Of a DNA stretch of 64,000 nt, positions 1-28,754 are shown piece after piece. The notes under the pieces are model-generated. The model was not told where the DNA came from. It ran no database searches and worked only from the letters and a program-made list of their open reading frames with translations. The position numbers and the translations under genes are program-made. The stretch comes from an uncultured virus (IMG/VR IMGVR_UViG_3300042934_000107). Lineage: Duplodnaviria; Heunggongvirae; Uroviricota; Caudoviricetes. The stretch is taken from the IMG/VR virus record IMGVR_UViG_3300042934_000107. The stretch is one strand, 5' to 3'. Each line of letters starts with the position of its first letter. Positions within the stretch are counted from its first letter, which is position 1.

Positions 1-28
1 ATAATGACATCAACTTGATATTAGGAGT

Positions 29-292
29 GTGTTTATTGTGCCAAGAAATAAAAGAGTAGCAAAAGAATTGAAAACTTATAATTTGAGGATTACGCCTACT
101 GATTATGAGATCATACAACAACAAGCAGCAGCAAACGGTATACCAATGAATACACTGTTGCAAAAGATTATTGCGGACTTCACGAATAGCGAGGAAGTTA
201 CACCTAAAGAGCAGAAGGTTTTGGACGAAATAAAAAGCCTCCCGCTTAAAAAGCGAAAGGCTATCATAAAAGAATTATCGGCTGACAATTAA
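29..292 (+). CDS. Arc-like ribbon-helix-helix repressor (start may be GTG at 38)
   Basis: KTYNLRITPTDYEIIQQQAAANGIPMNTLLQKII RHH pattern; the other copy is divergent from the early operon. Confidence 0.75.
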   Translation: MFIVPRNKRVAKELKTYNLRITPTDYEIIQQQAAANGIPMNTLLQKIIADFTNSEEVTPKEQKVLDEIKSLPLKKRKAIIKELSADN

Positions 293-454
293 TATGCATT
301 CAAGTAACTTATTTACTTCAAACTCATTTAAAGAATCAATATCAATCTTACAATTTCGCAATTCTTTCAGTAATAAGATCAACTTCGGATTGTTTTTACA
401 AACTTCCAAGTTGATCTTATTTTTTTCTATACTCTCTCGTTCGTCCAGTTTCAT
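275..454 (-). CDS. Small protein convergent on repressor; candidate SOS-induced antirepressor
   Basis: Frame conserved in both copies (MKL.ERESIEKNK...); upstream SOS box. Confidence 0.6.
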   Translation of the reverse strand: MKLDERESIEKNKINLEVCKNNPKLILLLKELRNCKIDIDSLNEFEVNKLLECILIVSR

Positions 455-485
455 CAATTTACAACACCATCCTATGTTTATTAGT

Positions 486-499
486 CGAACATCTGTTTG
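486..499. promoter_or_regulatory. Firmicutes LexA/DinR (SOS) box
   Basis: CGAACATCTGTTTG matches CGAAC-N4-GTTYG; just downstream of minus-strand TGnTATAAT. Confidence 0.75.
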
Positions 500-743
500 G
501 TTTGTATTATACCATATAACTTGTACTATTGCATCTAAAACTCCGATCACCAAAAATCCACTGGAAGATACCTCCGCTCGTTGCTACCCATAATCCCTAT
601 ATTATGCAAACTAGCTATGAATTCCTTTGAATTCTATTTGAATACTTTTCAACAAATTCCGACAATTCAGGAGGGGTAAATATTATACAGTAGAAATGTG
701 AAAAAAGTATGAAAGGCAAAAAGAAAGACGGATTATCCGTCAA

Positions 744-998
744 TTATTCGCTTTGCTCTACCATATTATCAATAGTATCATTTAGTATATTAATTTCTTT
801 CTGTAACTCTTCCTTTTCAGCTTGATATGTCTTAATAAGTCCGTGCATCCATTGATTAGTAGATTCTAATTCAGCAACCTTCGCCCTCTATTCTCGGAGT
901 GCTGATATTAGTTCTAATACTAACTCCTTTCCTACATTATCAATAACTATTCCAGTTGAAAATTCTTCTTCAATCTCAGCCAATCGTTCATCTGTCAT
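744..998 (-). pseudogene. Accessory coiled-coil gene interrupted by in-frame TAG at 888..890
   Basis: MTDERLAEI...LRE*RAKVAELE; homolog 44271..44669 reads ERAKVAEL. Confidence 0.65.
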
Positions 999-1149
999 AA
1001 TTATTCGCGCTCCAATTCATCATATCCCATAGCTTCTATCCTAATGTTTACTAATTTTACAACAAGTTTCATATCTTCTGTGCTTAATCCTCTTGCTATC
1101 ATTCTTTCAATTAATTCATTTGCCGTCCAAGTTAAATCAAAACTATCCA

Positions 1150-1521
1150 TTATCTACTCGCCTCCAGTGCTTCTTTAGCGTACCTATGAACAGTGTTAAA
1201 TTCATTTGTACTGTAATCGCGTTTTGATGTAGCATTAAATATAGTCTGCAACGCCTCACGTAACACTCGCTCCCTTTCATCCGCCTGTTCCAATTCTTTT
1301 TCTGCTCGTTGTTGATTTTCCTTTAGGTATGCAATATCCCTATTTGTTATGGCTTCAAAAGAAAAATCCCTTTTTACATCCAATAACGCTTGTATTTCTT
1401 TTTCTAACACTCGCTCCCTGTCATGGGATTGCTTCACAAAATTAATCACTTCTTGCTGATCGTTTCCCGGTATCTCAAAATCGACATTTTCCAATATAAA
1501 TAAAACATCTTTATACTTCAT
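1150..1521 (-). CDS. Phage accessory coiled-coil protein
   Basis: Shares ERERVLREAL and EALEAS segments with 44938..45279. Confidence 0.7.
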   Translation of the reverse strand: MKYKDVLFILENVDFEIPGNDQQEVINFVKQSHDRERVLEKEIQALLDVKRDFSFEAITNRDIAYLKENQQRAEKELEQADERERVLREALQTIFNATSKRDYSTNEFNTVHRYAKEALEASR

Positions 1522-1779
1522 CTACTCCACCCCTTTCAGCTTGTCAAGTTCAGCAGCAAGCCAGCAATTAGTATTGTGACCATTTAATTCACCGCAAATT
1601 TGACATTCGTATAATTCATTTCCTTCGCCATCATATCCACCTGGAACAACGCAAATTTCTTCCATGCGTTGAAGTAATAATCGTAGATTATATTTTAGCT
1701 GGGTGTTTTCTTGCTGTAACTCTTTCTTTCCGTCTATAAAGCCTTGCTTATACGCATTCATCGTTTCTTGTATGTTCAT
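1522..1779 (-). CDS. Phage accessory protein with Cys motif
   Basis: CxxC; shares QQENTQLK and AELDK..VE with 45280..45618. Confidence 0.7.
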   Translation of the reverse strand: MNIQETMNAYKQGFIDGKKELQQENTQLKYNLRLLLQRMEEICVVPGGYDGEGNELYECQICGELNGHNTNCWLAAELDKLKGVE

Positions 1780-2198
1780 TTCCCAACCTCCATTACAGCT
1801 AACAAGGCAGCCTTACAGATTGCGTGTGGTGCTGTTTCACATTCTACATGTTCTATTTCATCTTCAAAAATTTCACTATAGCCGTCCACCATATAGCAAT
1901 TAGAAGCTGTATGTATGTCCGAGTATATTTTATAGTCTTTCATCTTTTCAACAACTTCCCACGCTGCTGCAATGTCGGTACTGTAATTCCGTAATTTATG
2001 ACCATACGCATTGTTCTCAGGTCTTAAGTTAGGTGGATACCAACTTTTAATTAAGTTACTGAACGTCCATCCCATTACCTTTTTAGCGACTAGTGCATCC
2101 AATTCTCTACCCGGCACCATAGCCATAATTTCATCTCTAATTTGCTCTTTTAAAAGTCTATCTTCATTTAACTGTACTTCTTCCCATGAGCTTTTCAT
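1776..2198 (-). CDS. Phage ABA-sandwich (BC1872-like) protein
   Basis: GRELDALVAKKVMGW, YSTDIAAAWEVVEKM, APHAICKAAL motifs. Confidence 0.75.
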   Translation of the reverse strand: MKSSWEEVQLNEDRLLKEQIRDEIMAMVPGRELDALVAKKVMGWTFSNLIKSWYPPNLRPENNAYGHKLRNYSTDIAAAWEVVEKMKDYKIYSDIHTASNCYMVDGYSEIFEDEIEHVECETAPHAICKAALLAVMEVGK

Positions 2199-2351
2199 TG
2201 TGTGTCCTCCAATAAACGATTTATTACGCTTTCATAAGTTATTCTCATAACCATATTGTATGTATCTGCACAATTATTTTCGTCTATTCCACGGATGTAC
2301 AAGTCATGTTTCAGTTTATCAACCATTTGCTGGATTTGCTCTCTATTCATG

Positions 2352-2606
2352 CTAATCCTCCACCTTTTTAGCAAATTTTAATAATTTTTCAAGCGTTGGA
2401 GCAGCTATGTGATATGATCCTATAGGAGTTTCAGGATACCATTGCAACGTCCATATTTCATTAGTATCTCTTGCTTCTTGCTTTGCTTCTTCGTTTTCCC
2501 AATCAACAAGCTGTTGATCCATTATCTCTTCTTCTGCTGTTTTATAAAAATCTTTATGCCTATTGTGAGTTAAATACAATCCGCACTTATGTTTAGGTAA
2601 TTTCAT
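2352..2606 (-). CDS. Hypothetical phage protein
   Basis: ORF with GGAGG RBS in accessory array. Confidence 0.65.
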   Translation of the reverse strand: MKLPKHKCGLYLTHNRHKDFYKTAEEEIMDQQLVDWENEEAKQEARDTNEIWTLQWYPETPIGSYHIAAPTLEKLLKFAKKVED

Positions 2607-2618
2607 TGCCCATCCTCC

Positions 2619-2903
2619 CTATTCTTCTTCGAAATACTCTTTCCATTCTGCACCAAAACATTCTTTATAATCACTTAGTTCTTCGTCATTGCTTTCTATA
2701 ATGTCGTTTAATTCAATAGCTATGAATCTTCTTTGTAAACGTACATCAAGTCCACCTTCATCTAAATTGTGTTCTCCTATGATCCCTACAAATTCATTAA
2801 GGTCATCAAAATATACAGTTGTCCAAGCAGCTATTCTATTTTTTTCTCTGTATAAATGACACTCATTATTCATTAGAAAGTGATATAGTTTCTTACTGTT
2901 CAT
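2619..2903 (-). CDS. Hypothetical phage protein, homolog of 46041..46328
   Basis: KKLYHFLMNNECHLYR...YKECFG.EWKEYFEEE shared; start refined to ATG after GGAGG. Confidence 0.75.
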   Translation of the reverse strand: MNSKKLYHFLMNNECHLYREKNRIAAWTTVYFDDLNEFVGIIGEHNLDEGGLDVRLQRRFIAIELNDIIESNDEELSDYKECFGAEWKEYFEEE

Positions 2904-2907
2904 AATG

Positions 2908-3096
2908 TTAATCCTCCCTATTTGGACTTTCTGGTAATGGCATCCAGTGAGATATTTCCTCAATATCAAAATCGCCAATTCTCCAAGTTCCCCAATCGTT
3001 TATATATTTATCAATAAAAACTTCTCCAATAAAATTACAAACGATAACTTCTTGATCTTCTTCTGGAAGACGATCATTAACATTAATCCATTTCAT
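2908..3096 (-). CDS. DUF551-like phage protein
   Basis: MKWINVNDRLPE...SHWMPLPESP signature. Confidence 0.85.
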   Translation of the reverse strand: MKWINVNDRLPEEDQEVIVCNFIGEVFIDKYINDWGTWRIGDFDIEEISHWMPLPESPNRED

Positions 3097-3493
3097 ATAC
3101 TTTCCTCCTTATTCCTACTGTTTGGCTAATCCATTATTCTTCCCAATAACTCATTTCATCTTCTATAGCTTCAATAAGCTCTTCAACTGTAACATGGTCA
3201 TCTTCTTCAAATTGTTCTGCAAAGCATTTAAAGTTTTCACTAATACTATCTGTTTTGTTTAATATTTCGAGCAATTCTAAAAGTCTTAATATTTCTTTGT
3301 TCATTATTCATCATTCTCCTTTTTACTGTTTGGCTGGTTGGTGGTTAATTATTAACTTTCGGTTTAATTTTACCTAAAACTTTTCTTATTGCGTAAACGC
3401 TGACATTATATTTCTTAGCTAAATTATCCAAAGAAGACCATGTAGTACTATAAGTTGTTTTGATTTCTTCTATTTCTTCGTTAGTAAGTTTGC

Positions 3494-3685
3494 TCACTTT
3501 TCATTCTCCTTTATTAATTTTTCTACTTGAACTCTCAACCACGCTGACGGACTATATCCAAGCTTCTTGCACACTTCTTTAAATTTCCTCCTAGTGCTTT
3601 GCGGTGCAATAAACTGAATATGAACGTCTTTGTCTTTTTCTTCCACCTTATCACCTCTTAAGAGTATTTTATCATGATTTATCAT
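3494..3685 (-). CDS. Small ribbon-helix-helix/CopG-like regulator
   Basis: HIQFIAPQSTRRKFKEVCKKLGYSPSAWLR; matches C-terminus of 47280..47603. Confidence 0.65.
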   Translation of the reverse strand: MINHDKILLRGDKVEEKDKDVHIQFIAPQSTRRKFKEVCKKLGYSPSAWLRVQVEKLIKENEK

Positions 3686-3772
3686 GATTTGTAAAGTAAA
3701 AAAATAGGGTATTTCTACCCAATTAATATATATTTATAATTAGTTTAAAATGTGTTATAAATAGGTTTTAAA

Positions 3773-4081
3773 CTAATTTAATATACCTTCCTTATGTAGC
3801 AACTGTTTAACCAATGTTGAGAAGGGAACAGGTATTGAATTGCAGTATTCATCTATAGCGATAGATTGAGTGTTATTAAAATATACTACCTTTGTAATTT
3901 CAGCTTTGACATCTTTCCTTTTTCTTCCGGCTTTATTTTTAGGCTTTGATTTTGTTGGTGTCATATTTGCGCCTTTTAGGAAGTCTTTTTCTTTACTCTC
4001 TCTTTTGTTATCATCAATTTTATTTACACCAACGTCTTCGAAACTCATAAAATCATCATCATTTTTAGGCATGTATTGCAC
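3773..4081 (-). CDS. ParA partner (probable type Ib centromere-binding protein)
   Basis: Directly downstream of parA; disordered N-terminus, RHH-like C-terminus. Confidence 0.6.
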   Translation of the reverse strand: MQYMPKNDDDFMSFEDVGVNKIDDNKRESKEKDFLKGANMTPTKSKPKNKAGRKRKDVKAEITKVVYFNNTQSIAIDEYCNSIPVPFSTLVKQLLHKEGILN

Positions 4082-4141
4082 CTCTTTAAAATGTATTTAT
4101 AATATATTCAATATGCTTTTTTAATCAGTTTAATATGTATT

Positions 4142-4774
4142 TTAAATATATGTTCTAATCTCACGAACAAGATCGTTTATTTCATCGGCTGCCTTACCAT
4201 CTTTATCTAATTCAATAACACTTACACCTTTCGCATAGGCGGTTTTGTAGTCCTTGCGATGATGTAATACTGTACTCATTAAATTCAAATATCTCTTGTT
4301 ATTCCTTACAAATAACTTTAACTTTCTAATATCTCCTTGACTTCTTGCATCGGCATTATTAATAACAACGTTTGTTTGTACAGTGGTCTCAAATTGTAAG
4401 CTTGCCTGTCTAAGTGTCCCTTCGAACGTCTGTAAGCCGAAAAGCTCCACTTGCGATGGAGACACAGGGGTAATGATAAAATCTGCCCATATCATCGCTA
4501 AACGATTAATAGTGCTATCGTAACCACCGGAGTCAACAACTAATATTTCTTTATTATCGCGATACTGCTTAAATATCTCTTTTGCTTCATCGTCACTGCT
4601 TACTGTAAGACAATTTAAAGGTGTATGTCCTTTTGATTTTCTTATCTTATTAAATAATACAACAGAATTTAGATTATCAAGGTCGAGAATGTCAGCCTTT
4701 AAACTAATACCAAGATTGATTGCTATTGTGCTTTTACCTACTCCTCCTTTTTCATGTGCCACATTAATAATCAT
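4142..4774 (-). CDS. parA: Short ParA/ParF-type partition ATPase
   Basis: Deviant Walker A KGGVGKST, DLD, VVDSGG, final YKTAYAKGVSV motif. Confidence 0.9.
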   Translation of the reverse strand: MIINVAHEKGGVGKSTIAINLGISLKADILDLDNLNSVVLFNKIRKSKGHTPLNCLTVSSDDEAKEIFKQYRDNKEILVVDSGGYDSTINRLAMIWADFIITPVSPSQVELFGLQTFEGTLRQASLQFETTVQTNVVINNADARSQGDIRKLKLFVRNNKRYLNLMSTVLHHRKDYKTAYAKGVSVIELDKDGKAADEINDLVREIRTYI

Positions 4775-4862
4775 TTTACGCACTCCTTTTAAATACATTT
4801 AAAATTAGTTGAAAATGTATTCTATATTAATTTCAAATGCATTCGCCAAAGAATTCAAAATC

Positions 4863-4908
4863 TCCTGCAAATAAAAATAAGCCTGCACTAGCGGTTAGGC
4901 TGTACAGG
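4863..4908 (-). promoter_or_regulatory. Conserved hairpin/terminator plus SigH-like -35 upstream of parA; copy at 48741..48786
   Basis: 45/46 identical in both elements despite unrelated flanks; CCTGTAC..GTGCAGG stem with T tract. Confidence 0.6.
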
Positions 4909-4921
4909 CTTGGAGCGATGT

Positions 4922-5104
4922 TTATTCATTAACTATTTTAACATTATTCCATTTTACAAGTTTATCTTCTAATCCTTCTGCTTTTATTACTTCAATCCCT
5001 TGGTTGTATATAGCCAGTCCAATTGCTTTTTCTATCCCGGGGAGATTCATCACATTCAACATAAATGATTGTCTTTTTTCATTCTTAGTCATAATATCAC
5101 CCAT
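4922..5104 (-). CDS. Small hypothetical protein between ncRNA region and parA
   Basis: ORF preceded by perfect SigA promoter. Confidence 0.55.
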   Translation of the reverse strand: MGDIMTKNEKRQSFMLNVMNLPGIEKAIGLAIYNQGIEVIKAEGLEDKLVKWNNVKIVNE

Positions 5105-5123
5105 TTCTTAACATTTTATGGTA

Positions 5124-5153
5124 ATTATATGTTGTTAATTGATAGATTGTCAA
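5124..5153 (-). promoter_or_regulatory. SigA promoter
   Basis: TTGACA-18-TATAAT. Confidence 0.8.
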
Positions 5154-5184
5154 TAATAAGTGTTGACTTACGATCTAGGATATT

Positions 5185-5650
5185 ATACATCAGGTCACTG
5201 GTTTTCGAGCATAACTTGCCTAAATCCCTGTTAGGGAAGCAGGCAAGTGTGACTGCATCAGTATAACTTGGTATCATATGCACCTGTAGTTTTAACACAG
5301 TATAGCCATCACCATGCCCTCTGGCACTATGTATTTAGTCACGTCTTTTCAGACATAGGTATCCATTGATTAGTTATAATCAATTGCCCAATTCTTTTCT
5401 GCCATGACAGAAGGTGATTAAACCTATGTTGAAACACAACCAATCTCACATGGATGCTACAGGACATTTAAACTGGTTGTGGCGTACTTAGCGTACTTAT
5501 CTACCGCAGTAGTTGCTCTTTCCCCAAAGGAAAGTATACCCCTCTTGGCAGGTATCAGTTTGTCCCACTTGCTAACGCAGGTTTCAGTGTTTATCGGCTG
5601 TATTCGGTAGCCTAGACGTTGTGTTACCGTCTATCCGAACGTTAAAAATC
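5185..5650 (-). ncRNA. Large structured non-coding RNA in the rep slot (candidate replication RNA/primer)
   Basis: No ORF with RBS; at least 10 nested helices incl. GUCU-GAAA-AGAC tetraloop; downstream of attenuator. Confidence 0.65.
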
Positions 5651-5656
5651 CAATAT

Positions 5657-5687
5657 AAAAAGGACATTAACGTTTAACGTTATGTCC
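5657..5687 (-). terminator. Attenuator terminator
   Basis: GGACATAACGT-TAA-ACGTTAATGTCC followed by TTTTT. Confidence 0.75.
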
Positions 5688-5721
5688 CGCTAATTCTCAA
5701 ATATAAATTTTACAAAAATAC

Positions 5722-5751
5722 TTGCACTATATACCGCAAATATGGTATTAT
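5722..5751 (+). promoter_or_regulatory. Countertranscript promoter
   Basis: TTGCAC-18-TATTAT with extended TG. Confidence 0.7.
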
Positions 5752-5756
5752 ATGTT

Positions 5757-5871
5757 CAAGTTCTTGCTCAATCTGTTCGAGAGATTAGCGAGAAGAATTA
5801 AAAACTGCTGATTACAGTTATAATTCCGTTATGTACCTGTAGGCTTAATTGCTTGCAGGTATGTTTCGTTT
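5757..5871 (+). ncRNA. Antisense (copy-control-like) RNA of element A
   Basis: Promoter, hairpin 5761..5794, terminator TACCTGTAGGC/GCTTGCAGGTA 5834..5861; antisense to leader. Confidence 0.7.
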
Positions 5872-5876
5872 ATAAG

Positions 5877-5905
5877 ATTATATCAAATTATTGTGCAATT
5901 TGCAA
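5877..5905 (-). promoter_or_regulatory. SigA promoter for leader plus structured RNA
   Basis: TTGCAA-17-TATAAT. Confidence 0.8.
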
Positions 5906-5949
5906 GAAAAATTTGCATATTTTAACACAATTACGCAAAAACTATATAG

Positions 5950-5958
5950 TTATCCACA
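5950..5958 (+). promoter_or_regulatory. DnaA box
   Basis: Perfect TTATCCACA beside replicon promoter; B has TGTGGATAA at 50069..50077 and 48954..48962. Confidence 0.5.
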
Positions 5959-5963
5959 AATAG

Positions 5964-6008
5964 AAAAACCCGCCTCACTCAAATGAGAGCAAGGCGGGTT
6001 TTTTATTT
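5964..6008. terminator. Bidirectional intrinsic terminator
   Basis: AAAAACCCGCCT...AGGCGGGTTTTTT. Confidence 0.8.
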
Positions 6009-6054
6009 AATTTTGGTAATACTAATAATTAAATTAATAGTGGAGGGATAAATA

Positions 6055-6276
6055 ATGAAAATAACATGTCCAAAATGCAAAGCTAATTCTAAAGATATTG
6101 AAATGACAGCAAACATTTCTTTTATACCAGTAATATATAATGAAAATATTGATGAATTTAAAGTGTCAACTCCGCTGTCTCACGATGTAGAAGAAGTAAA
6201 CTGCAAATGTGTAAATTGCGGTAATACATGGATGTGGAAAGCGTATAGAAGGAATATGTATATAAGGTCAGTTTAG
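6055..6276 (+). CDS. Small zinc-ribbon protein (moron-like)
   Basis: CPKC...CVNC; GGAGG RBS; flanked by terminators. Confidence 0.7.
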   Translation: MKITCPKCKANSKDIEMTANISFIPVIYNENIDEFKVSTPLSHDVEEVNCKCVNCGNTWMWKAYRRNMYIRSV

Positions 6277-6328
6277 AAACAAAAAGCCTCCACCAATTAC
6301 GGTAGAGGCTAATTTTATTTATAAGTTA

Positions 6329-6964
6329 TTATTTAGAATGTCTTACTGGAGTTGTAATTGCTTTTTCAATAGACCACTTTGCAAGAGTTACTCTCCCATA
6401 TAGTGTTTCTCTTTTCATATTATATTCTTTAGCCCATTGTGACAATGTTTGAGTTTTCCCTTTATATGTTATTTTTACACTACTTCTCTTGTTATTGCTT
6501 TGCTCTTCTGACGTAACCCACCTACAATTGTCCTTAAAATATCCTAATTCATTATTGATCCTATCAAGAGTTGTACCTTTAGGCCTTTCACCCATGTCTT
6601 TATAAAACCCTTCAACTGTTAACCATTCGTCGCATACTGTTATTCCTCTTCCTCCGTAATAACTATAATGAGGAACATTTTTATTAGTGCACCTTTGAAC
6701 CATGCCACTCCAAACTTTATGTATTGGATTATGCCTAAGTCCGTGTTTGGTAAATCTATTTTTAGTAACTTCTTTTTGCAAACAACCGCAACTTTTAGTT
6801 TCGCCATTTTTTAAGCTACTACCAAATATTATTTTAATATTACCGCAATCGCATTTGCAATTCCAAAAAGCTTTTCTATTATTAATATGGCTAAAAGATA
6901 AAACAACTATTCTACCAAACCTTTTACCTGTAATGTCAACAATTTTACCCATAACAAAAACCAC
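6329..6964 (-). CDS. Phage HNH-type homing endonuclease
   Basis: WNCKCDCG, KSCGC, YGGRGITVC, TLDRINN..GY..DNCRW motifs. Confidence 0.85.
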   Translation of the reverse strand: MVFVMGKIVDITGKRFGRIVVLSFSHINNRKAFWNCKCDCGNIKIIFGSSLKNGETKSCGCLQKEVTKNRFTKHGLRHNPIHKVWSGMVQRCTNKNVPHYSYYGGRGITVCDEWLTVEGFYKDMGERPKGTTLDRINNELGYFKDNCRWVTSEEQSNNKRSSVKITYKGKTQTLSQWAKEYNMKRETLYGRVTLAKWSIEKAITTPVRHSK

Positions 6965-7005
6965 CCCTTCGCATTAGTAGTTATTTTCTTCGCATATTAA
7001 ATTGT

Positions 7006-7074
7006 ATGTACAAGGGAAGGAGTGCGAAGTCTCTTTTCGCGGTGGTTAATTACTCCACGGCTATCCCTATACAT
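7006..7074 (-). ncRNA. C4-like cloverleaf RNA upstream of HNH gene
   Basis: Three-stem fold; loop CUUCGCA complementary to two downstream UGCGAAG copies (6988..6994, 6967..6973). Confidence 0.65.
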
Positions 7075-7083
7075 ATAATTATA

Positions 7084-7497
7084 CTATTTTTTAACGAGAA
7101 TAGCAACGATTCCAAGTATAGTAAGATCCCTTTGCAGCCTAAGTTTCCTTATCTCACTTTTCGTCTGTTCTTGGTAAGTTTGAAAGGATTTGTTGACCTT
7201 CTCTAATGAGATCGTGGCTTGATTTATTGATTGATTGGCTACTTTCAATTGATTGTCTAATAGATTTATTTGATTGTTCGATATTTTGATTTGTTCTTCT
7301 GATTTCGCTAGTGATTCGTTGGCTATTTTCAACTGCTTGTCCTGCTCCTGTAAGTTCATTTCTAGTTGATTGAATATTGTTTGTAACCTCTCCCGCTGTT
7401 GTTCCTCCATTTGGTACGACTGGGCTGAACACGTCCCAACAAATGACACAAACAACAAGCAACACAATGCCAATGATAATATTTTTCTTATTTGCAT
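7084..7497 (-). CDS. Secreted coiled-coil protein, spanin-like component
   Basis: Signal peptide with Cys, heptad repeats, hydrophobic C-terminus; AAGGAG RBS; follows endolysin. Confidence 0.65.
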   Translation of the reverse strand: MQIRKILSLALCCLLFVSFVGTCSAQSYQMEEQQRERLQTIFNQLEMNLQEQDKQLKIANESLAKSEEQIKISNNQINLLDNQLKVANQSINQATISLEKVNKSFQTYQEQTKSEIRKLRLQRDLTILGIVAILVKK

Positions 7498-7537
7498 TTA
7501 TAAACTCCTTTGCTTGATTTAATTTATCGTCCAACAT
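7154..7537 (-). CDS. Membrane-anchored coiled-coil protein overlapping previous gene, i-spanin-like
   Basis: N-terminal TM IIIGIVLLVVCVICW then coiled coil; alternate frame. Confidence 0.55.
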   Translation of the reverse strand: MLDDKLNQAKEFINANKKNIIIGIVLLVVCVICWDVFSPVVPNGGTTAGEVTNNIQSTRNELTGAGQAVENSQRITSEIRRTNQNIEQSNKSIRQSIESSQSINKSSHDLIREGQQILSNLPRTDEK

Positions 7538-8081
7538 AATCTGTAACACCCCTTGATATCGCCTTAGAAAGCTCGTCACGCTGTTTTTCGTCGGCAAGCA
7601 TACATTCATCTTCAACGTTAGAAATAAAAGCCGTCTCGATCAAAATTGCAGGGCAATCTGTATTACTAAGAACATACAAACCGTTAACTCCTGGCGTTGC
7701 ATTTTTAATACCCCTATCAACAATGTTTTCACCATTGGGATATTTAACAGAATTGACAATTTGATCTTGAATGCAAGTTGCTAGTTCTCTGCCTTTTGCG
7801 GAACCATTATTAAACCAGGTTTCGGAACCTTGAGCAGATTCATTACTTGCTGCATTGCAATGGATGGATATAAATAAATCAGCACCAAATCTATTTGATG
7901 CATTGGTAATCTGGTATAGCTCGTTTTCTTGTACAAATAGGACTTCATATCCTACGGCTGTTAGGTATTCACATACCTTTTGCGCAATATCGGTTGCTAC
8001 AATTGCCTCTTGTAATCCTGTTTGTCCGACGGCTCCGGAGTCTAATCCTGGGTAGTGCCCGGCATTAACTGTTACTTTCAT
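7524..8081 (-). CDS. Endolysin, N-acetylmuramoyl-L-alanine amidase (Amidase_3)
   Basis: NAGH, E, SIHCNA, PAILIETAFISN motifs. Confidence 0.92.
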   Translation of the reverse strand: MKVTVNAGHYPGLDSGAVGQTGLQEAIVATDIAQKVCEYLTAVGYEVLFVQENELYQITNASNRFGADLFISIHCNAASNESAQGSETWFNNGSAKGRELATCIQDQIVNSVKYPNGENIVDRGIKNATPGVNGLYVLSNTDCPAILIETAFISNVEDECMLADEKQRDELSKAISRGVTDYVGR

Positions 8082-8299
8082 TTTGGTTGCTCTCCTTTTC
8101 CACTATTAAAAACTGAGTCTGTGCCGTGTTTTAATATGATAGGTACTATAATAGTCAAGTACATGTTTTGCAACGCTCCTAGGTCGAATTTGGAAGCGTA
8201 GAGGGCATTGCAAAACCATGCTGTTAGGTATGTGATAATGAATAAGGTGGTGCAGATACCTACCGCACCACCTAGAATAGTTTTTATTTTGTTTAACAT
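8078..8299 (-). CDS. Holin-like membrane protein
   Basis: Two TM segments; just upstream of endolysin; tail DSVFNS.KG..P shared with 51325..51543. Confidence 0.7.
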   Translation of the reverse strand: MLNKIKTILGGAVGICTTLFIITYLTAWFCNALYASKFDLGALQNMYLTIIVPIILKHGTDSVFNSGKGEQPK

Positions 8300-8310
8300 T
8301 TTGTTACCTC

Positions 8311-8595
8311 CTAATGCTTGCTAAACGCAAAAGCAATTGCAGCAGCGATGCCACTAGATACCACTACTGTTATCGCGGTATTGATAAGAGATTCCCAACG
8401 TTTAGCTGGTTGTGCAGCGAGTTTGGTTACTTCTGTTTTAATGTCTTGCATAGCTTTGCTTATAAAGTCAAATTTAATGTCTACATTGCTCTGTTGCTTT
8501 GACAATTCGTGATATTTTTCTTTAAGATCGGAAATTGCTTCGTCTTGATTATCTACTCGTTTAACTAAGTCATGATGTAATTGACATATTTCCAT
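8311..8595 (-). CDS. XhlA-like coiled coil plus C-terminal TM lysis protein
   Basis: Coiled coil, KRWESLI, terminal TM. Confidence 0.65.
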   Translation of the reverse strand: MEICQLHHDLVKRVDNQDEAISDLKEKYHELSKQQSNVDIKFDFISKAMQDIKTEVTKLAAQPAKRWESLINTAITVVVSSGIAAAIAFAFSKH

Positions 8596-8658
8596 CTAAT
8601 TACCTCTCACTGGTTTGTTAGGTTTTACTGGTTTAATTGGTTTTACTGGTTTAGCCAT
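8596..8658 (-). CDS. 20-aa KP-repeat micropeptide MAKPVKPIKPVKPNKPVRGN
   Basis: Fills gap exactly between neighbours; G-rich RBS upstream. Confidence 0.55.
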   Translation of the reverse strand: MAKPVKPIKPVKPNKPVRGN

Positions 8659-8660
8659 TA

Positions 8661-8918
8661 CTATTTACCCCCTTTTATTGTTTGACTGCTGTCAGTAGTA
8701 TTTATTTGAGTTTGATTTGTTCCATAATTGTAGTCAGTCGTGAAATAAAAATACGAATATCCTATTACGGTAACGGCAAAGCATAGGCAGAACGCCACTG
8801 TAAGCACTATAATGCAGTTAACTAGCCTATTATTGATTTTATCTGATTTATCGATCATTTCAGTTGCTAGTGTGATTAGATCAGTTACATAAGGATAGTC
8901 TTTATCCATTGGCAACAC
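8661..8918 (-). CDS. Single-TM protein of lysis region
   Basis: Central hydrophobic segment; AAGGAG RBS. Confidence 0.6.
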   Translation of the reverse strand: MLPMDKDYPYVTDLITLATEMIDKSDKINNRLVNCIIVLTVAFCLCFAVTVIGYSYFYFTTDYNYGTNQTQINTTDSSQTIKGGK

Positions 8919-8994
8919 TCCTTAATTTTAGGCATAAAAAATACACCTCGTAAGGTGCTATGCCGATTCCCAGTATGTTAATTTCCAGTAGGTT

Positions 8995-9061
8995 AGCACA
9001 CGGAAAAACGCTGGAAAACCGCCTTGTCACTAAAGGAGCGACCTTTAGCTATCCGTGTGCT
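8995..9061 (-). ncRNA. Second C4-like cloverleaf RNA
   Basis: AGCACACGGA/UCCGUGUGCU outer stem; loop UUUCCAG complementary to downstream CUGGAAA and CUGGGAA. Confidence 0.65.
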
Positions 9062-9081
9062 CGTCTATCATACTACAAAGT

Positions 9082-11628
9082 TCACCAAGTTTGCAATGTA
9101 GTATATATTCCGTATCCTTGTACGGTGTAATCTATTCCTACACCGCTACCTGTTGCTTCTTCTACGTTTTCAATTGTTCCATTTACATAGGTTCTTTTTA
9201 TCATGACAGTATCAGCAACATTGCTACCTTGTGATCCTAAATGAATAGAAACACTACCATAAGTATTTATGCACTCGCAATCGTCGATATAAATAGTACT
9301 AAGCAATGCTAAATCGGCATAATTGTGTATGCTCCATGCACGGCATTGTGTGGTATTTGTACCATATGTTATAAATTTGCTTCCTTGCATTCTTATGACA
9401 GAATCACTACCATGTCCAGCAGCAAACGCATGACAAGGAGCCCAAAGACCATCAGCGTTACCATAATGGATTATATCGCAATCTTTTATCGTATATCTGC
9501 AATTGTGGTAACTTGATCCAGAATCAGCATGAATAGGGTATCGCATGTTTTTTGCTGTTATGGTTAAATTTTGCAAGGTAACAACGCCACCATAATTTAG
9601 AGTAGACAGATACTTTGATTGATCATAGGTTGCTGCGCCTCCCAATTCTCCTTTTAGGATTGTCTTGCTTCTGTCCCCAACACCTATCAAATTAACATAG
9701 CTTGGTATTTCTAAACCGCGATTTCCTATTGATCCACTAGGATTATTAATCATAGCGGTTGGTAAACTAGCAACAATATCATATTCACCTTCGTAAATTA
9801 ACACGTTATAGCCGTTTTTCGCTGATGAATCTGTGATGCTTGATAAAGCGGTGTATAAATCAACATAGTCACCTGTACCATCTTTTTTTACAATGATGCT
9901 ATTGTCAACGAATGGATACACTGTTTTTATAGTGTCCATTAGCCCTTGTACTTTTGCAGGTTCAACATTTGCACCAAATGGCATAAATCTAGTCGTAGCA
10001 CTCCCTTTTTCAAATTGCGTTTTATTAAGATTTTCAGACTTGACAGTTAGTCTTACATAATAGGCATTTGTAGGCACTGTAACAACATTGCTGAATAAAG
10101 TAAACCCGCTCACGTATGCCTTAGTTGTGCCAAAAAATGCGCCTTGCTCTACATTATTCTGTAAAACATATGCCTGTCCTGGTTCAATAGCAATATAGTC
10201 TGATGCATAGTAGCCAGCTAGTGACGTTAAAACTCCAGTATTATGATGGACGTAGTAACCAGCAGTAACCTTTGAATTATCAAACAAGTTAGGGGATAAG
10301 TCACCTTTTACAACAATCGAATCAGACCTAATCATGTCATCAGAAACATAGCCACTATCGTCTAGGCTTAATTTAGCACCGTAACTTTCGTACTCAAAAA
10401 CACTACCTTTAGCAAGTTGGATAATATCTGCGTATGCTACAGTAATTGTAAGTCGTACATAGGCAGCCGTTGACGGTGTTGTCCAAGATCCTAAACTGTT
10501 AGATAGTCCACTAATATATACTTTGCTTGAATTGTAAAAAGCTAGTTGCTGACCATCACCTGTTTTTGTATACAACGTTGAAGCTTCTACTGGGATATAA
10601 TCCGTGTAACCATATGAAGCGTTATAACTACCATTCAGATTTCCTGTTGTGTAAACAATGTAATAACCTACGGTGAAGTTACTTTTATCAAATAAGTTTT
10701 TGGACGCTCTACCTTCAACAGCCAAAAAAGATAAGCTTTTCTTACTTACAGAACCATCAACAACAGTTGGAATATATGCTGATTTTTGCCAGCTACCTGC
10801 TCCACTGGCTCCTAGCTTTATATAAATACCATTATTTGTAGGGTTTGAATCATTTGTGACAAGTGCCGTAACGTTTTCCGCATGCGCTAAGTCGGCATCC
10901 ATTAAAGATTTTGTGGTAAATGCAATATCATGGGTTGATTGTGCAGAGAGATTAGCGGAATTTGCAGCTTCCAAGGCTGATGCTTCATATGTTCCTGCAT
11001 TAGTTGCGCTACTTGCTGCTGCCGTGGCACTTGCAGAAGCTGAATTTGCGCTATTTACTGCTGTTGTTGCTGAATTTGACGAAATTGTAGCAGAAGAAGC
11101 AGCTTCTTCTGCCTTTGTTGTAGCTGTATTTGCTGCTGTTGTTGCATCTACTATTGCTAACGCTACAGCCTCCTTGGATAACTCAGCAATAAATTCAGTA
11201 GAAGTCATTCCATCTATTGTTTTGTCAATTCCTAGTTTGATGCATCTGTCAATTTCTTCTTGTTGTTGTTGAGCAATCATTGTAATCCTGTCAAATGACA
11301 TTTCAACAACTTTAGGTTTTAATGCTGTATTGTTAGGATATACTGTAGGCTGCAATACCTCTAGAGTTCTAAGTATGGTTAGTTTGTAGTTGCTTGATAT
11401 TGCTGTTCCGATTGATGGGTATGTAACAGTGCCGTTGCTTGACGGGAAAGTTCCTTCTGACGGTGAAACGCTGTAATTACTAGTTATTTCAGTTTCTGTA
11501 CCGTTGATTGTATCGGTTAAATAAATGTGCAAATCATCTTCTGTAAGTACGTCAAATTCATAGTCAAACGTTTTCGTAACCCCATTACCTACATAGATAT
11601 GTTTATTAAGAGTTGATGATAGTGACAT
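9082..11628 (-). CDS. Tail fibre/tailspike
   Basis: T7-type N-terminal anchor (YVGNGVTKTFDYEF), Ala/Ser stalk, two NLFD modules, pectinesterase-like VKKDGTGDY beta-helix. Confidence 0.85.
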   Translation of the reverse strand: MSLSSTLNKHIYVGNGVTKTFDYEFDVLTEDDLHIYLTDTINGTETEITSNYSVSPSEGTFPSSNGTVTYPSIGTAISSNYKLTILRTLEVLQPTVYPNNTALKPKVVEMSFDRITMIAQQQQEEIDRCIKLGIDKTIDGMTSTEFIAELSKEAVALAIVDATTAANTATTKAEEAASSATISSNSATTAVNSANSASASATAAASSATNAGTYEASALEAANSANLSAQSTHDIAFTTKSLMDADLAHAENVTALVTNDSNPTNNGIYIKLGASGAGSWQKSAYIPTVVDGSVSKKSLSFLAVEGRASKNLFDKSNFTVGYYIVYTTGNLNGSYNASYGYTDYIPVEASTLYTKTGDGQQLAFYNSSKVYISGLSNSLGSWTTPSTAAYVRLTITVAYADIIQLAKGSVFEYESYGAKLSLDDSGYVSDDMIRSDSIVVKGDLSPNLFDNSKVTAGYYVHHNTGVLTSLAGYYASDYIAIEPGQAYVLQNNVEQGAFFGTTKAYVSGFTLFSNVVTVPTNAYYVRLTVKSENLNKTQFEKGSATTRFMPFGANVEPAKVQGLMDTIKTVYPFVDNSIIVKKDGTGDYVDLYTALSSITDSSAKNGYNVLIYEGEYDIVASLPTAMINNPSGSIGNRGLEIPSYVNLIGVGDRSKTILKGELGGAATYDQSKYLSTLNYGGVVTLQNLTITAKNMRYPIHADSGSSYHNCRYTIKDCDIIHYGNADGLWAPCHAFAAGHGSDSVIRMQGSKFITYGTNTTQCRAWSIHNYADLALLSTIYIDDCECINTYGSVSIHLGSQGSNVADTVMIKRTYVNGTIENVEEATGSGVGIDYTVQGYGIYTTLQTW

Positions 11629-11736
11629 GTGATACCCTCCTAAAATAAAATAGAGACTGCAATTATGCAATCTCTTAATAAATTTGTTGTTAAATTGTGG
11701 TATATTGGTATAATGGAGTTTGAGGTGACATATAAT

Positions 11737-12069
11737 ATGGATTTCATAAATTTTATATTTTTAATTACTATTACAATGTATCTGCTAGTCAAAATAGATC
11801 GAATTTCTGTAAATATTGGGTTAGCTAAGTGGATGAAAATAAAAGCACATTCTTTATGGTCGTTTATTTTTCATTATAAATGGTTTATTATATTTCCTAT
11901 ATTTTCTTACTTCGTATTGATTGTTGCTTCGGAAATAGATTTAGATAGAAGTACAGAAAGAATCTTAGTTAATATATTATTGAGAACAATAACATTTGTA
12001 GAAGATGCACTTATTGTTTTGGGGATATATGCGATATACAAATATTTTTCTAAATTTTATTGTAAATAA
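11737..12069 (+). CDS. Moron-like multi-TM membrane protein
   Basis: AT-rich, opposite strand, own TGnTATAAT and RBS, about 3 TM. Confidence 0.7.
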   Translation: MDFINFIFLITITMYLLVKIDRISVNIGLAKWMKIKAHSLWSFIFHYKWFIIFPIFSYFVLIVASEIDLDRSTERILVNILLRTITFVEDALIVLGIYAIYKYFSKFYCK

Positions 12070-12086
12070 GATAAGAAAGAGCGCAA

Positions 12087-15000
12087 CTAATTTTTACGCT
12101 CTTTCTTTGGTCTACGTTTCATTATATCTTCTAGTTCAGGATCCATACCATTGACAAAATAATCATAGGCATTAAAGAACCACGCATTAAACTGGTCAGG
12201 GTATCCTGTGCTGTATGCGGTTGCTTTTGCTACTGATTCGACAACATCTTGTTCGTTAGTCGCTCCATTTCCATATACATAGTTTTTAACTTTTGAAGCT
12301 GCATCTGTCATAGCATCAAAGGATGAAAATGCTATAGGCGGTCTATAACCATACGTCTGTAATCCGAGTGCTGAGTTAAGAATTATTGGTGCTACATCGC
12401 GAACAACTGGCAATAACTGCAATGGATAACTAGCAATTTTACTAGCGTAATATGCAGCAGGATCATCTTCATCCTTAGGCCCCTTGCCTGCTAAAAAGTC
12501 GGATGCAATCACAAATGCAATCATTCTACTAGCAACAAACCCAACAAATCTAGGAACATTTTCTATTCCTTTTATAGATAGACCATCTTGCGTAGCCATT
12601 CCAGATTCTTTAACCCATCGATTAAATTCAACATTCATGAATCCATAGAAACTAGAAAATACTTTGTCAGTAACTTTCTTGCTTCTCATTATTGGCGATA
12701 AATCGTATTTCCTGCCTGAACCATTTACCGCTTTAATTAATGAGTCTGCATAGTATGCCGATTGCTTAGAATCTCCTGTTTCTCCTAACTTCTTTTCATA
12801 TGCTTGTTTCCACATAGGAACGGCTGTTAAGTCATCAGAAGCAGACAGTAATCCTAATCCAAACTCTGCAATTTTACCCCTGTTTTCAAACATGTTGCTT
12901 TGAATATCATTCAGGGAATAATCAGGAGTTCTTCTTCTATCACGCATGTAGGGAGATAATGCATAAATCTCTTCTCTTACCTGTTTGGCTGCTTTCCAGT
13001 TTAAAGCTGATTTAGGAAGATAGTTTAATAATCCATGCTTAATAACTCCCATAACTGCGTCTTGCACTCCAAAACCTTCTATTGCCTTAGGATATAGAAC
13101 CATGTTAGCAGCATTCTGTGTAATAACTCCGACTCTAAAAGTAATGGCTGCTTTAGTTCCTGCCCTGCGCAAATAATCGACAACGCTTTCAATTGCTGTC
13201 ATTCCTACATTTCTGTATGATTCTCCGTTAGCAATATTGGAAACATGATCACTAAATTGTTTTAACCCTTCTGGCCCTAACTTGCTTTGAACCGTAAATT
13301 GGAACTCTTTATTGTTTAGCATTCTACGATAGTCTGACACTAAGTCTCTAAAATACAAGTCATGAACAACATCAACGATGTGCCTATTTATCAATGCAGG
13401 ATCAAGGTCTATTGAGTAGTTAGCATTAGAACGAGACTTTGTATGTCCTGTTTTTGTTGTAGCTTTCCATGCAGGATTTTGTTCTGTGTAAAGCGGTGCA
13501 TCTGCGCTTTCTCTTTCGGCAGCTATTAAAGAAGCTCTAGGATCTTGTTTTAGAGGATAATACCCTCCATCCATTTGTATAGTTTCACCATTACGCAACG
13601 TTACTTCAAAAGGTGCAGCTTCAACCTTCTTCGGTTCAAAGCCTGTCATTTCTGCATGAAAGTTTGCCAAGTCAGGCCAAATAGTATTAACCAGATCCCA
13701 AGTCTTTTGGACTGTCTGCCAATCTCTTTTATCAAGGTTATTGGTCAACAACTCCATGACAGTATCCCTGCCCCATGGCTTAGTGCTTTCTACTCCAAAA
13801 GGCCTTGTACTAAACAACTTACTACTATTACCTTCATTGCCAAGATTAAATGCCATAGCCATTAGTTTCATCTTGGTTGTAGAGGCTCCAAGTTCATCAT
13901 AATAAACTTTGTCGTTAGCCATTGCCTTACGTTCTTTAGGGGAGTACTCGCCCCACATTGTTTCCAATTCTGTTTTAAATTTATTAATTCGATTGCTTTC
14001 TAAATTGGCTCTTTCGTGAACAGGAGCAATCCAGAACTTTTCCAATGAGCCAAATGTTTTCCATTGCTGTAATCTGCTAACTACTGTCGACATTGTTTGT
14101 AGTGAATACAGGTAATTAGAAACTCCACTCTTAAATCTATCTAATTTAGTTGGCTCTATTTTAGGAGTAAATGCAGTATCAAGCTTATTCATTTCAGTAA
14201 TCATTTCTAAGCGTAAAGCATCTAATGATTCGCCTTTGGCTACTGCAATAGAAGTCTTTTCTTGATTAGCTACCTTTTGGATGTTCTTCAATGCGTCAGT
14301 AACATCTTTTAATTCTGGCATTGTAAGATCTTTATAGTTCTTTCTAATTGATTCATCATTCAGCCATTGAGGAATATTAACGGAACCAAGCATTTCATCC
14401 ATACGATTTGACCAATCTGCTAACGATTCAGTCTTGCTATTAATAGCATAGTCTTTGCGACCTAATCCAAAACGCTCTAGAATAGATCCAACTTGGTTAA
14501 AGTTTTCATCCGTTTTGAAGAGTTTTTTCTTTTTAGATACGACGCCTTTTAGGTATTTGTCTTGTTTAGCGAAGTCTTTACTAAGTTTCATAGCTTCAAG
14601 CGCGAAAGCATGATTTAGCATTTCAGCATTTTTAAGAATTGCAGCAGTTTCATATTTACCAGCACGATATTCTTTTTCTGACTGTCTCGCTGCTTCTCTT
14701 GCTTGTTTCATATACTTGTTATAGTTAACGGCATCTTTAATTTGTTTGTCTGCCAATGATGTTTTAGCATAATCTAAAGCAGCCTTAACGCCTATTTGTG
14801 ATTGTCTAGCTATTCTCTGGCTAGTCGATTCAGACTTAAGCCATTCTTTAGCCATAGCATTATCATTCTTCTGCTGTTCTTTTAAATCAGCTTCTTTGGT
14901 TTTAGCTTCTGCATCATACCATCTAGCGGTATATTTAGCATCAGCATTAAGCTGTTTTATCTCTTCCGCATGCGACTTATTAAGTTCCGCTAACTGTTCT

Positions 15001-17282: not shown

Positions 17283-17299
17283 ATTTGATGCCCCTTTGC

Positions 17300-19375: not shown

Positions 19376-19382
19376 TTAGTTA

Positions 19383-19856
19383 TCAACCCCCATAAGACGA
19401 ATATTTTTGAGCAGCAGAAGACACCCCAGTGAGCAATGAAGACATTGCTTGGTATTTACCTGTTTGTTTTGCATTTTTGGCCTGCGCTCTGTATTGATTA
19501 GCTTGATTATTTAATCCCCACATTTGCATAGCTGTGTTATATCTTGATGTCTGAACATCTTGCTCGCTTTGCATAGCTGTGTCAGATATAACAGACAATG
19601 CAGATCCTGATTGAGTGTCAAGTCCATTGGCTGCAAATGCTGTTTTTTGTGATGCAGTAACTTGTTTTGCTTTTTGCCTGATCTGGACTTGTTCGTTTGT
19701 TCCTTGCTGACCAACTGATACAGCCTGTGCTTCTGCTATAGCTGCATTTTGATTAGCAATTGATGCCTGATAAGCTGCATTATTCTTTGCTGCCTGCATT
19801 TGCGTAAAAGTTCCGAATACATCAGCACCAGTTGATATGCTTGAAGCATTACACAT
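19383..19856 (-). CDS. Small internal virion protein (T7 gp14-like)
   Basis: MC start, Ala/Gln-rich, AANGLD..SGSAL motif. Confidence 0.75.
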   Translation of the reverse strand: MCNASSISTGADVFGTFTQMQAAKNNAAYQASIANQNAAIAEAQAVSVGQQGTNEQVQIRQKAKQVTASQKTAFAANGLDTQSGSALSVISDTAMQSEQDVQTSRYNTAMQMWGLNNQANQYRAQAKNAKQTGKYQAMSSLLTGVSSAAQKYSSYGG

Positions 19857-19857
19857 G

Positions 19858-20304
19858 TTACGCCTCCTTCCGTTTAAAGAAATAGTGAAACAGTTTATTT
19901 TCTATACCGTACTCTTTTGGTTCTTCTATTGTTATTTTCATGAACTTGGCCCACTGTAGCGCAAATATATTTTCACTGTAAATATGACCTTCAATGTAAC
20001 CACACTGATTAAGCAAACTGTTTAATCCTTTATGAGTTTCCTTGAAAAAACTTAACGGCAGAGTTTCAACATCTACCGCAAAAAATAACCAAAGATTATG
20101 TTTATCAACTAATCCAGATATGCAAATTGGCTTATTATCTAATAATACAATCTGTTTATATTCTGACGTTTCATATAAAGCAGCCATACATAATCCTGGT
20201 TCTATTCCAGATGAAACTTTTATTTCTTCGAGGTTTTTTTCATGCAACTCAAATAACGCAAAGTCTTCAAACGTTGCCTCTCTAATGCTAATCACAATAC
20301 ACAC
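19858..20304 (-). CDS. GNAT-like / T7 gp13-like protein
   Basis: Position and EN..ALQW.KFM motif. Confidence 0.6.
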   Translation of the reverse strand: MCIVISIREATFEDFALFELHEKNLEEIKVSSGIEPGLCMAALYETSEYKQIVLLDNKPICISGLVDKHNLWLFFAVDVETLPLSFFKETHKGLNSLLNQCGYIEGHIYSENIFALQWAKFMKITIEEPKEYGIENKLFHYFFKRKEA

Positions 20305-20786
20305 TCTTGATGTTTAAAATTTGTATTTGCAAATTCTCCAAAAAGTTCAATAGCTTTTTTATCGTAAGCAACGGCAGCGGAAATATCATCATCAAATAAT
20401 CCAATCCAAATCCTTTTATAATTAAATCCTATTCTAGATTGCCATTTCCCATCTGATTTCCTATGTGTAACCCCCTTGAATTTAGATGTACTATTGCTTT
20501 TTAATTTGTTTTGGTTGCGACAATTTTCACTATGAGTAGCTTCTCTTAAACTGTTTCTATCTATATGATCTGTTTTTAAATCTGCGTTCATTTTACAATT
20601 TAACGCTACGATTTTATGCATATATTCAGTTTTGCGTTTCCCATTTGATAATCTAATGTTTCTAACTGCATAATAGTTTCCGTTCTTGGGATCTTTATGA
20701 GCATACCATTTGTGTAGCGATAAAATTTCATAATCTTCATCACTGCAAAATGCTACTTTATTTTTAGTCAATTTAATTCCATGCAA
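20292..20786 (-). CDS. HNH-AP2 endonuclease, apparently with active-site deletion
   Basis: DHIDRN, SKFKGV..WQSRI..IWIGLF..AAVAYD AP2 motifs. Confidence 0.8.
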   Translation of the reverse strand: MHGIKLTKNKVAFCSDEDYEILSLHKWYAHKDPKNGNYYAVRNIRLSNGKRKTEYMHKIVALNCKMNADLKTDHIDRNSLREATHSENCRNQNKLKSNSTSKFKGVTHRKSDGKWQSRIGFNYKRIWIGLFDDDISAAVAYDKKAIELFGEFANTNFKHQECVL

Positions 20787-20791
20787 TTACA

Positions 20792-23329: not shown

Positions 23330-23330
23330 A

Positions 23331-28753: not shown

Positions 28754-28754
28754 A

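Follow-up and report, generated by a model that had tools for sequence, protein, structure and literature searches.

The locus examined here raises the question of what is made from roughly 750 bp of DNA separating the lysis genes from the partition (par) genes of an uncultured tailed phage. The window, i.e., the whole analysed stretch of 64,000 nucleotides (nt) from IMG/VR record IMGVR_UViG_3300042934_000107, consists of two virus records placed end to end, namely element A at 11..43541 followed by element B; element A corresponds to IMG/VR record G001 (43,531 bp), with a 100% match at an offset of 10. A first-pass annotation had proposed that an attenuator-gated structured RNA occupies in A the place of the rep gene in B, and that the RNA itself is the copy-limiting product of a replicon. 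Our examination indicated that a self-contained cassette of ~750 bp without coding content occupies 5156..5905 on the minus strand. As far as can be read from the sequence, its layout is that of countertranscript-driven attenuation as in plasmid rep control, but gating a non-coding RNA. One full homologue of the cassette was found, in G002, a 39,122-bp phage that carries ParA; A and G002 are both metagenome records. The cassette and its borders comprise the following features.

5877..5905, minus strand: sense promoter P_left, TTGCAA-17-TATAAT with TG upstream; putative start site near 5870.
5689..5870, minus strand: sense leader with stem-loops, the first ~115 nt of which are complementary to the antisense RNA.
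5722..5751, plus strand: antisense promoter, read by eye, with a weak -35 (TTGCAC), an 18-nt spacer and an extended -10 (TATG-n-TATTAT).
5758..5874, plus strand: putative antisense RNA of ~115 nt with three stem-loops, the last of which is the terminator.
5831..5864, plus strand: terminator hairpin of the antisense RNA with a T-rich tail.
5652..5688, minus strand: intrinsic terminator (attenuator), a hairpin at 5688..5662 with one bulge, followed by UUUUUAUAUU; U-tract at 5661..5652.
5211..5638, minus strand: structured RNA core of ~428 nt.
5124..5153, minus strand: consensus promoter (TTGACA-18-TATAAT, 12/12) of the operon of a 60-amino-acid open reading frame (ORF) and parA; it marks the 3' limit of the cassette.
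5950..6003, no strand assigned: upstream border, with a perfect DnaA box at 5950..5958 (plus strand) and a two-way terminator hairpin at 5964..6003, neither of which is aligned in G002.

Given the promoters at 5905..5877 and 5153..5124, the cassette lies between two promoters. The sense promoter, the antisense promoter, the antisense terminator, and the attenuator all occupy aligned places in A and G002. At the place of P_left, G002 has TTGCTA-17-TAAAAT, also with TG (L166 2599..2627), and at that of the antisense promoter it has TTGCGT-18-TACAAT with TATG-a. The antisense promoter of A was not listed by the promoter scan because its -35 matches the consensus at just 3/6 positions, and promoter-like sites were not enriched as a class (8 found versus 9.9 expected). 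The antisense RNA was predicted to form three stem-loops in both phages, with upper stems that differ in sequence; its terminator in G002 has 15 pairs, with a U-run on the antisense strand only. The leader hairpins likewise appeared in the same order in the folds of both phages despite a sequence identity of ~60%, and a long-range leader helix was kept with different sequences. The attenuator hairpin was read from the sequence, since the terminator scan permits no bulge and misses it; its stem stays paired in G002, where one A-U pair has become G-C and one U-A pair U-G, and UUUUUUAUAU comes after the hairpin. Between the attenuator U-tract and the core there are ~14-20 nt that are unconserved and lack a promoter, and no terminator was found after the core by the scan.

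These features suggest the following order of events. A sigma-A-type promoter would begin the sense RNA, and the opposing promoter would give a small antisense RNA fully complementary to its first ~115 nt. The intrinsic terminator would come next, and the folded core of ~430 nt would be made only by polymerases that read through it, because no promoter lies between the terminator and the core. Since the core would be made only on read-through, the antisense RNA would set the output of core RNA per DNA copy, as in countertranscript-driven attenuation of rep genes. From the layout we infer that antisense pairing promotes termination.

The core showed no sign of coding capacity. Across 5200..5640 no frame was longer than 69 amino acids from stop to stop on either strand, and the seven longest frames gave no Pfam match and one weak PHROG match (E=0.0085), which bears out the first-pass statement that 5650..5185 lacks an ORF supported by a ribosome-binding site and speaks against a decayed protein gene, the refutation it had envisaged. 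The G+C content around the core was 39-46% compared with 28-33% in the flanks, the rise being smaller when set against the whole phage (42.8% versus 36.7%). The minus strand of 5170..5660 (491 nt) folded with -142.8 kcal/mol (z=-3.36, 0/100 shuffles as good), and the plus strand with -130.9 kcal/mol (z=-2.91). The helices listed in the first-pass annotation are all present in the sequence; however, GUGCC/GGCAU and CCAUG/CAUGG cannot both form because they share bases. The RNA had also been drawn too long: the conserved part ends near 5211 rather than at 5185, and the closing helix UUAUAC/GUAUAA is not kept in G002.

A search against Rfam 15 at the gathering score gave no match in the whole window, including ROOL, GOLLD, HEARO, group I and II introns, tmRNA, and RNAI, so the comparison with ROOL, GOLLD, and introns that had been proposed yielded no family. 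With E values up to 10 over 4800..6100, 38 matches were obtained, of which one lay inside the core (queA, 16.4 bits, E=3.7, plus strand). In G002 the only Rfam match was to tRNA, outside the cassette. A tandem repeat, GCGTACTT-A-GCGTACTT, was observed at 5482..5498 on the plus strand; it places AAGUACGC twice in the RNA, with a palindrome GUAC in each unit, and is invariant in both phages.

Subsequently, the two sequences were compared with respect to the strand that carries the RNA. Five or six substitutions in local hairpins were kept as G-U on the minus strand only (for example in CUUUCC/GGAAAG, UUCUG/CAGAA, GUGCC/GGCAU, and UAUGAU/GUUAUA), and one on the plus strand only. The consensus fold of A and G002 reached -115.0 kcal/mol on the minus strand (z=-5.7, structure conservation index 0.89) and -94.8 kcal/mol on the plus strand (z=-3.8, index 0.81). 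In the UUGAUUA hairpin the loop was altered at 4/4 positions and the stem was unchanged. Three compensatory exchanges were seen in candidate helices: C-G to U-A in CCUGUAG/CUACAGG, C-G to A-U in the 11-pair hairpin CACAACCAGUU/GAUUGGUUGUG, and G-C to A-U in GCAAGUG/CACUUGC. Both the changes kept as wobble pairs only and the consensus fold point to the minus strand as the one transcribed, as far as a comparison of sequences can tell. Because the core is known from two phages only, no ornate structure backed by covariation can be drawn.

Taken together, these findings make it likely that the core is a genuine RNA of the minus strand and that the gate before it is genuine too, mainly because the regulatory apparatus is conserved, the two strands differ in their signals, and a coding signal is lacking. 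In this respect the first-pass description of a minus-strand RNA behind a promoter, an antisense RNA, and a terminator most likely holds, the apparatus being conserved in A and G002.

The core itself is highly conserved in the two phages, with 34 substitutions in 430 aligned bases (~92% identity) and four indels (1, 4, 1, and 1 nt), compared with ~60% identity in the leader and unrelated DNA beyond 5210 on the 3' side. A and G002 are only distantly related: blastn could align no more than five stretches, among which the cassette was the best by a wide margin (81.6% over 679 columns), the others reaching 65-74% over 127-388 columns. A divergent antisense region beside a conserved effector fits the pattern expected of a specificity determinant, as for incompatibility or immunity.

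Further copies proved scarce. Six exact patterns taken from the core occurred in 2 records only of the viral collection, A itself and G002, and one metagenome scan recovered the G002 phage again. Most matches to two of these patterns were set aside as chance, namely 5/7 for one 19-mer (T7-like coding DNA) and 23/25 for one 16-mer. A profile search of 200 loci and the window, element B included, gave no further copy of the core, and blastn in distant mode with 5150..5700 gave no match in the phage or plasmid collections. It had been suggested that homologues be collected next to parA. A single-sequence search with ParA returned only the window's own record, and an alignment route (40 relatives leading to 80 viral and 80 genome loci) gave the RNA in none of these loci, all of which carried distant ParA proteins of <=37% identity over full length and left out the closest ParA relatives (79-81%). 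The core RNA was not found among the 401 genomes searched from the phylum of a Sporosarcina locus, and a search of sequencing runs listed no carrier of it; in runs X4 and X5 the uncovered parts of the stretch are uninformative. Contigs from four runs yielded two fragments, a 123-nt piece identical to 5259..5381 from a bovine metagenome run and a 148-nt piece from another run corresponding to 5282..5429 with 3 differences, whose flank reads like G002. Two phages and two fragments are the only sources of the core, which represents a new RNA family.

As for the genomic setting, A is a tailed phage whose genes lie nearly all on the minus strand, and its gene content includes a terminase, tail genes, holin-like genes, an antirepressor, Gam, Erf, SSB, a DnaD-like loader, and the DnaB helicase. 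The genes around the cassette are as follows.

7524..8081, element A: Amidase_3 endolysin.
6329..6964, minus strand: HNH endonuclease gene upstream of the cassette, phrog_374 (E=4.7e-78 in the window and 2e-70 in G002), present in both phages.
4922..5104, minus strand: 60-amino-acid ORF downstream of the cassette.
4142..4798, minus strand: ParA downstream of the cassette, ParA-like by phrog_164, with Pfam matches to MipZ, AAA_31, and CbiA.

The slot follows the endolysin and HNH genes in A and G002 alike. No tyrosine or serine recombinase (PF00589, PF00239) was found in G001 or G002, although control genomes were matched by the same models. With terminase, tail genes, endolysin, and ParA present and an integrase absent, the gene content is that looked for in phage-plasmids; because ParA is present and tyrosine and serine recombinases are lacking, a plasmid-prophage lifestyle appears plausible for A and G002. 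The host is probably a low-GC organism of the Firmicutes.

Element B lacks the cassette and carries in the slot a Rep-like gene (phrog_9773/6493, window 48935..50077). Its regulatory features are listed below.

49930..49902: promoter of element B.
49792..49821: opposing promoter.
49864..49893, plus strand: terminator.

A minus-strand hairpin-plus-U attenuator was not seen in B. Hence the first-pass view that promoter, countertranscript, and attenuator recur in both elements holds for A, and for B as regards the promoter, the opposing promoter, and the Rep-like ORF, but not the minus-strand attenuator. Compared with G002, the tail genes of B are 55-71% identical and ParA is 41% identical. Thus, in the three mosaic relatives compared, what lies between the lysis genes and the par genes is the cassette in A and G002, and in B a Rep-like gene equipped with an antisense promoter of its own, in agreement with the proposed exchange with a Rep module. 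Perfect DnaA boxes were also noted in B at 48954 and 50069, and the opening ~500 bases of B and A are near-identical (B 43562..44069 versus A 29..511; 82-99% at the protein level).

Several further observations concern the neighbourhood. Upstream of the cassette in G002 (L166 1900..2560, G002 ~26850..27500) lie two units with consensus promoters (11/12 and 12/12) and terminators but without a long ORF, and one of them contains a tRNA-like element (Rfam tRNA, 35.9 bits) for which ARAGORN makes no call. A radical-SAM-like phage protein (phrog_9298) is encoded directly after the cassette in G002 (L175 8435..9616), but in the replication module in A (window 37864..38718); the 393-amino-acid G002 protein gave no match of note in Pfam, NCBIfam, or PDB. 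AT-rich repeats of the TTTAAAATGTATTTA kind, both direct and inverted, flank parA and a 102-amino-acid gene at 3723..3772, 4086..4157, and 4788..4837, and may be partition sites or operators. Among the few plus-strand ORFs of A is one of 73 amino acids at 6055..6276, between two terminators beside the HNH gene, which is zinc-ribbon-like and weakly matches an HNH endonuclease PHROG. Each element also contains a very large ORF, that of A at 12087..17282 (1731 amino acids) with LPD22 and DUF6861 domains and that of B at 52567..55890 (1107 amino acids) with the ADP-ribosyltransferase domain of polyvalent proteins.

What the gated RNA does can be proposed only tentatively. The single likeliest role is that of a dose-limited RNA of a plasmid-state replicon, i.e., a primer or origin-activating transcript that would work with host or phage replication proteins. 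This role is suggested by the type of gate, which limits dose per DNA copy, and by the position of the cassette, next to the par genes in A and 3.3 kb before them in G002. It is also in line with the Rep-like gene and opposing promoter in the slot of B, the presence of ParA and lack of a recombinase in both phages, and the absence of a terminator after the core. The more ambitious form, in which the cassette is a complete replicon without its own initiator gene whose gated RNA primes or opens an origin using host enzymes alone, and which can be swapped with Rep modules, appears quite doubtful. The RNA-only replicon of the first-pass annotation is therefore neither shown nor excluded.

A number of observations weigh against the gated minus-strand RNA or against its role in a replicon. 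With no more than two full sequences to compare, the covariation signal in the core is thin. An unbiased test, in which the fold of one sequence was scored with the substitutions of the other against random placement, did not reach significance, with P values of 0.08 and 0.18 for the minus strand and of 0.20 and 0.03 for the plus strand. Among the 65 pairs of the earlier helices, 57 were invariant, 5 had changed but stayed paired (4 on one side, 1 on two sides), and 3 were broken, and shuffles gave equal results; furthermore, a double change from A-U to C.A in UAGACG/CGUCUA fits the plus strand only. Recent transfer might also explain why the two cores are so nearly identical. In the gate, no clear antiterminator exclusive of the terminator was found, the conserved long-range leader helix abutting the terminator without overlapping it, and for this reason the sign of control is read from the layout. 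To our knowledge, ColE1 has no terminator between its antisense target and its origin. As to replication, both phages have modules of their own, with DnaB plus a DnaD-like loader in A and a replication initiator in G002, and are therefore not Rep-less as had been supposed. The DnaA box at 5950 is indeed a perfect match, but no box occurs near the G002 cassette, so the site is unconserved, and the 17 boxes with <=1 mismatch, compared with 22 expected, do not exceed chance. In G002 the cassette lies 3.3 kb before parA, behind other RNA-like units. Finally, one metagenome contig of 1140 nt, from a run that is possibly the source sample, joins 5155 to 5896 and skips the 740-bp cassette, which hints weakly, its shorter side being 30 nt with 80% likeness, at a relative with the same flanks and without the cassette.

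Some of these observations lead to another reading, in which the core is a large structured phage RNA acting in trans in the manner of ROOL and GOLLD, an accessory 'RNA moron' placed after the lysis genes, perhaps with partners or oligomeric, and unrelated to replication. We regard this as possible, though rather unlikely. The position of the slot in A and G002, behind the endolysin and HNH genes, the RNA-island setting in G002 behind a tRNA-like element and two units bounded by promoters and terminators, the very high conservation of the core, and the possible (weak) relative without the cassette would all suit it. The core, however, matches no ROOL, GOLLD, or other Rfam model, and no trans target was prominent in either phage when 12-mers and duplex energies were examined. 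Moreover, a dose-limiting gate of antisense RNA and terminator is not a known trait of ROOL or GOLLD and is difficult to account for if the product is harmless.

An unlikely alternative is a leader or immunity switch of an early or maintenance operon, in which the antisense RNA would halt P_left transcripts in the plasmid state and read-through would occur on infection; the core would then be a cis-acting part of the transcript, e.g., a processing or antitermination element. RNA-based immunity is employed by P4, N15, and P1, and the divergent antisense region would suit heteroimmunity. Transcripts could run on, as no terminator follows the core and the downstream genes all point in the same direction, and no CI-type repressor was found among 27 further ORFs of A scanned, an antirepressor being present. 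What these downstream genes are, on the other hand, differs in the two phages (the 60-amino-acid ORF and parA in A, the radical-SAM-like gene in G002), and each has its own strong promoter right behind the core. In addition, the cis antitermination RNAs known to us are far smaller than 430 nt.

It is improbable that the segment acts as DNA, i.e., as a replication origin, a single-strand initiation site, or a protein-binding region, with folding that is incidental or confined to single-stranded DNA. Both strands do fold better than shuffles, the segment adjoins the par genes and contains the tandem GTACGC repeat at 5482..5498, and conservation alone does not distinguish RNA from DNA. Nevertheless, the wobble-only changes and the better consensus fold favour the strand read from P_left, and the conserved promoter, antisense RNA, and terminator immediately upstream argue for transcription into the core. 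Neither iterons nor an AT-rich unwinding stretch were found in the core, and the cumulative GC skew is monotonic, dominated by gene strand, and without an origin signal.

That the element is a decayed gene for a protein, or a neutral remnant acquired by recent transfer, is very improbable, for although such transfer could explain the high identity and the substitution rate is equal in paired and unpaired columns, there is no open frame and no family match better than E=0.0085, the indel lengths are not divisible by three, the regulatory apparatus that belongs to the element is conserved, and pieces of the core occur in two further runs from other sources. Three other ideas were dropped. A group I intron or HNH-associated RNA did not agree with the absence of an Rfam intron match and of exons, with flanks formed by promoter plus leader at one end and by a promoter at the other, and with the terminators that separate the HNH gene. 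A phage attachment-site (attP) copy of a host RNA gene was rejected in view of the lack of an integrase and of an Rfam match, and a type I toxin-antitoxin system because a small ORF preceded by a ribosome-binding site is missing from the leader.

Attenuation by antisense RNA is a textbook means of holding the dose of a plasmid Rep protein constant. In the present case such a gate would precede a long, strongly conserved non-coding RNA in phages that resemble plasmid prophages. If the dose-limited replicon RNA proposed above is indeed the replication-limiting product, the cassette would represent a type of RNA-primed replicon free of an initiator gene outside the ColE1 group, and RNA and protein replicon modules would be interchangeable in phage-plasmids. 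If it is not, the cassette would provide a new large phage RNA under unusual dose control, which is helpful for finding its function. Small (750 bp) and self-contained, the cassette lends itself to direct testing, and bench work is worthwhile. No description of such a cassette was found in a limited search of the literature, which is not proof that it is unpublished.

The rep genes of pT181 and pIP501 are controlled by countertranscript-driven attenuation through the pairs RNAI/RNAII and RNAIII/repR (PMC5703833). As in these plasmids, the cassette appears to have a sense leader with an opposing promoter inside it that would give a short structured antisense RNA, it has a rho-independent terminator that separates the antisense target from the product under control, and it is placed beside plasmid maintenance genes. 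Unlike them, it gates a conserved RNA of ~430 nt, with no Rep ORF in 5211..5638; no clear preemptor or antiterminator pairing was found in it, and blastn against the plasmid collection gave no sequence similarity.

The resemblance to ColE1 lies in the long non-coding sense RNA (~660 nt from its start to the end of conservation), in an antisense RNA of ~115 nt which, like RNA I, has three stem-loops and covers the 5' end of the sense RNA, and in a module without an initiator ORF or a 3' terminator. ColE1 is controlled through refolding of the preprimer, and the cassette differs from it in having an intrinsic terminator (5688..5652) between the antisense target and the core. The antisense RNA did not match the Rfam RNAI model, the sole RNAI match (15.4 bits, E=6.8) being at 5908..6006. 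We know of no ColE1-type replicons in low-GC, Firmicutes-type hosts.

In pAMbeta1 and the Inc18 group, a transcript entering the origin serves as the primer and antisense attenuation upstream controls the copy number (PMC5703833). The cassette would be similar in that an origin-entering transcript would prime replication with antisense attenuation upstream of it; there, however, the transcript is the rep mRNA and RepE is required at the origin, whereas the cassette has no rep ORF. ROOL and GOLLD have been described from phages and prophages, in many cases close to tRNA islands (PMC12286853). The cassette shares with them a large, well-folding, non-coding phage RNA, and the G002 region also has a tRNA-like element, but the core matches no covariance model, is smaller than GOLLD, and stands behind an antisense gate. 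With no Rep ORF, with a terminator present, and with no sequence or model match, the cassette belongs to neither the pT181/pIP501 nor the ColE1 class.

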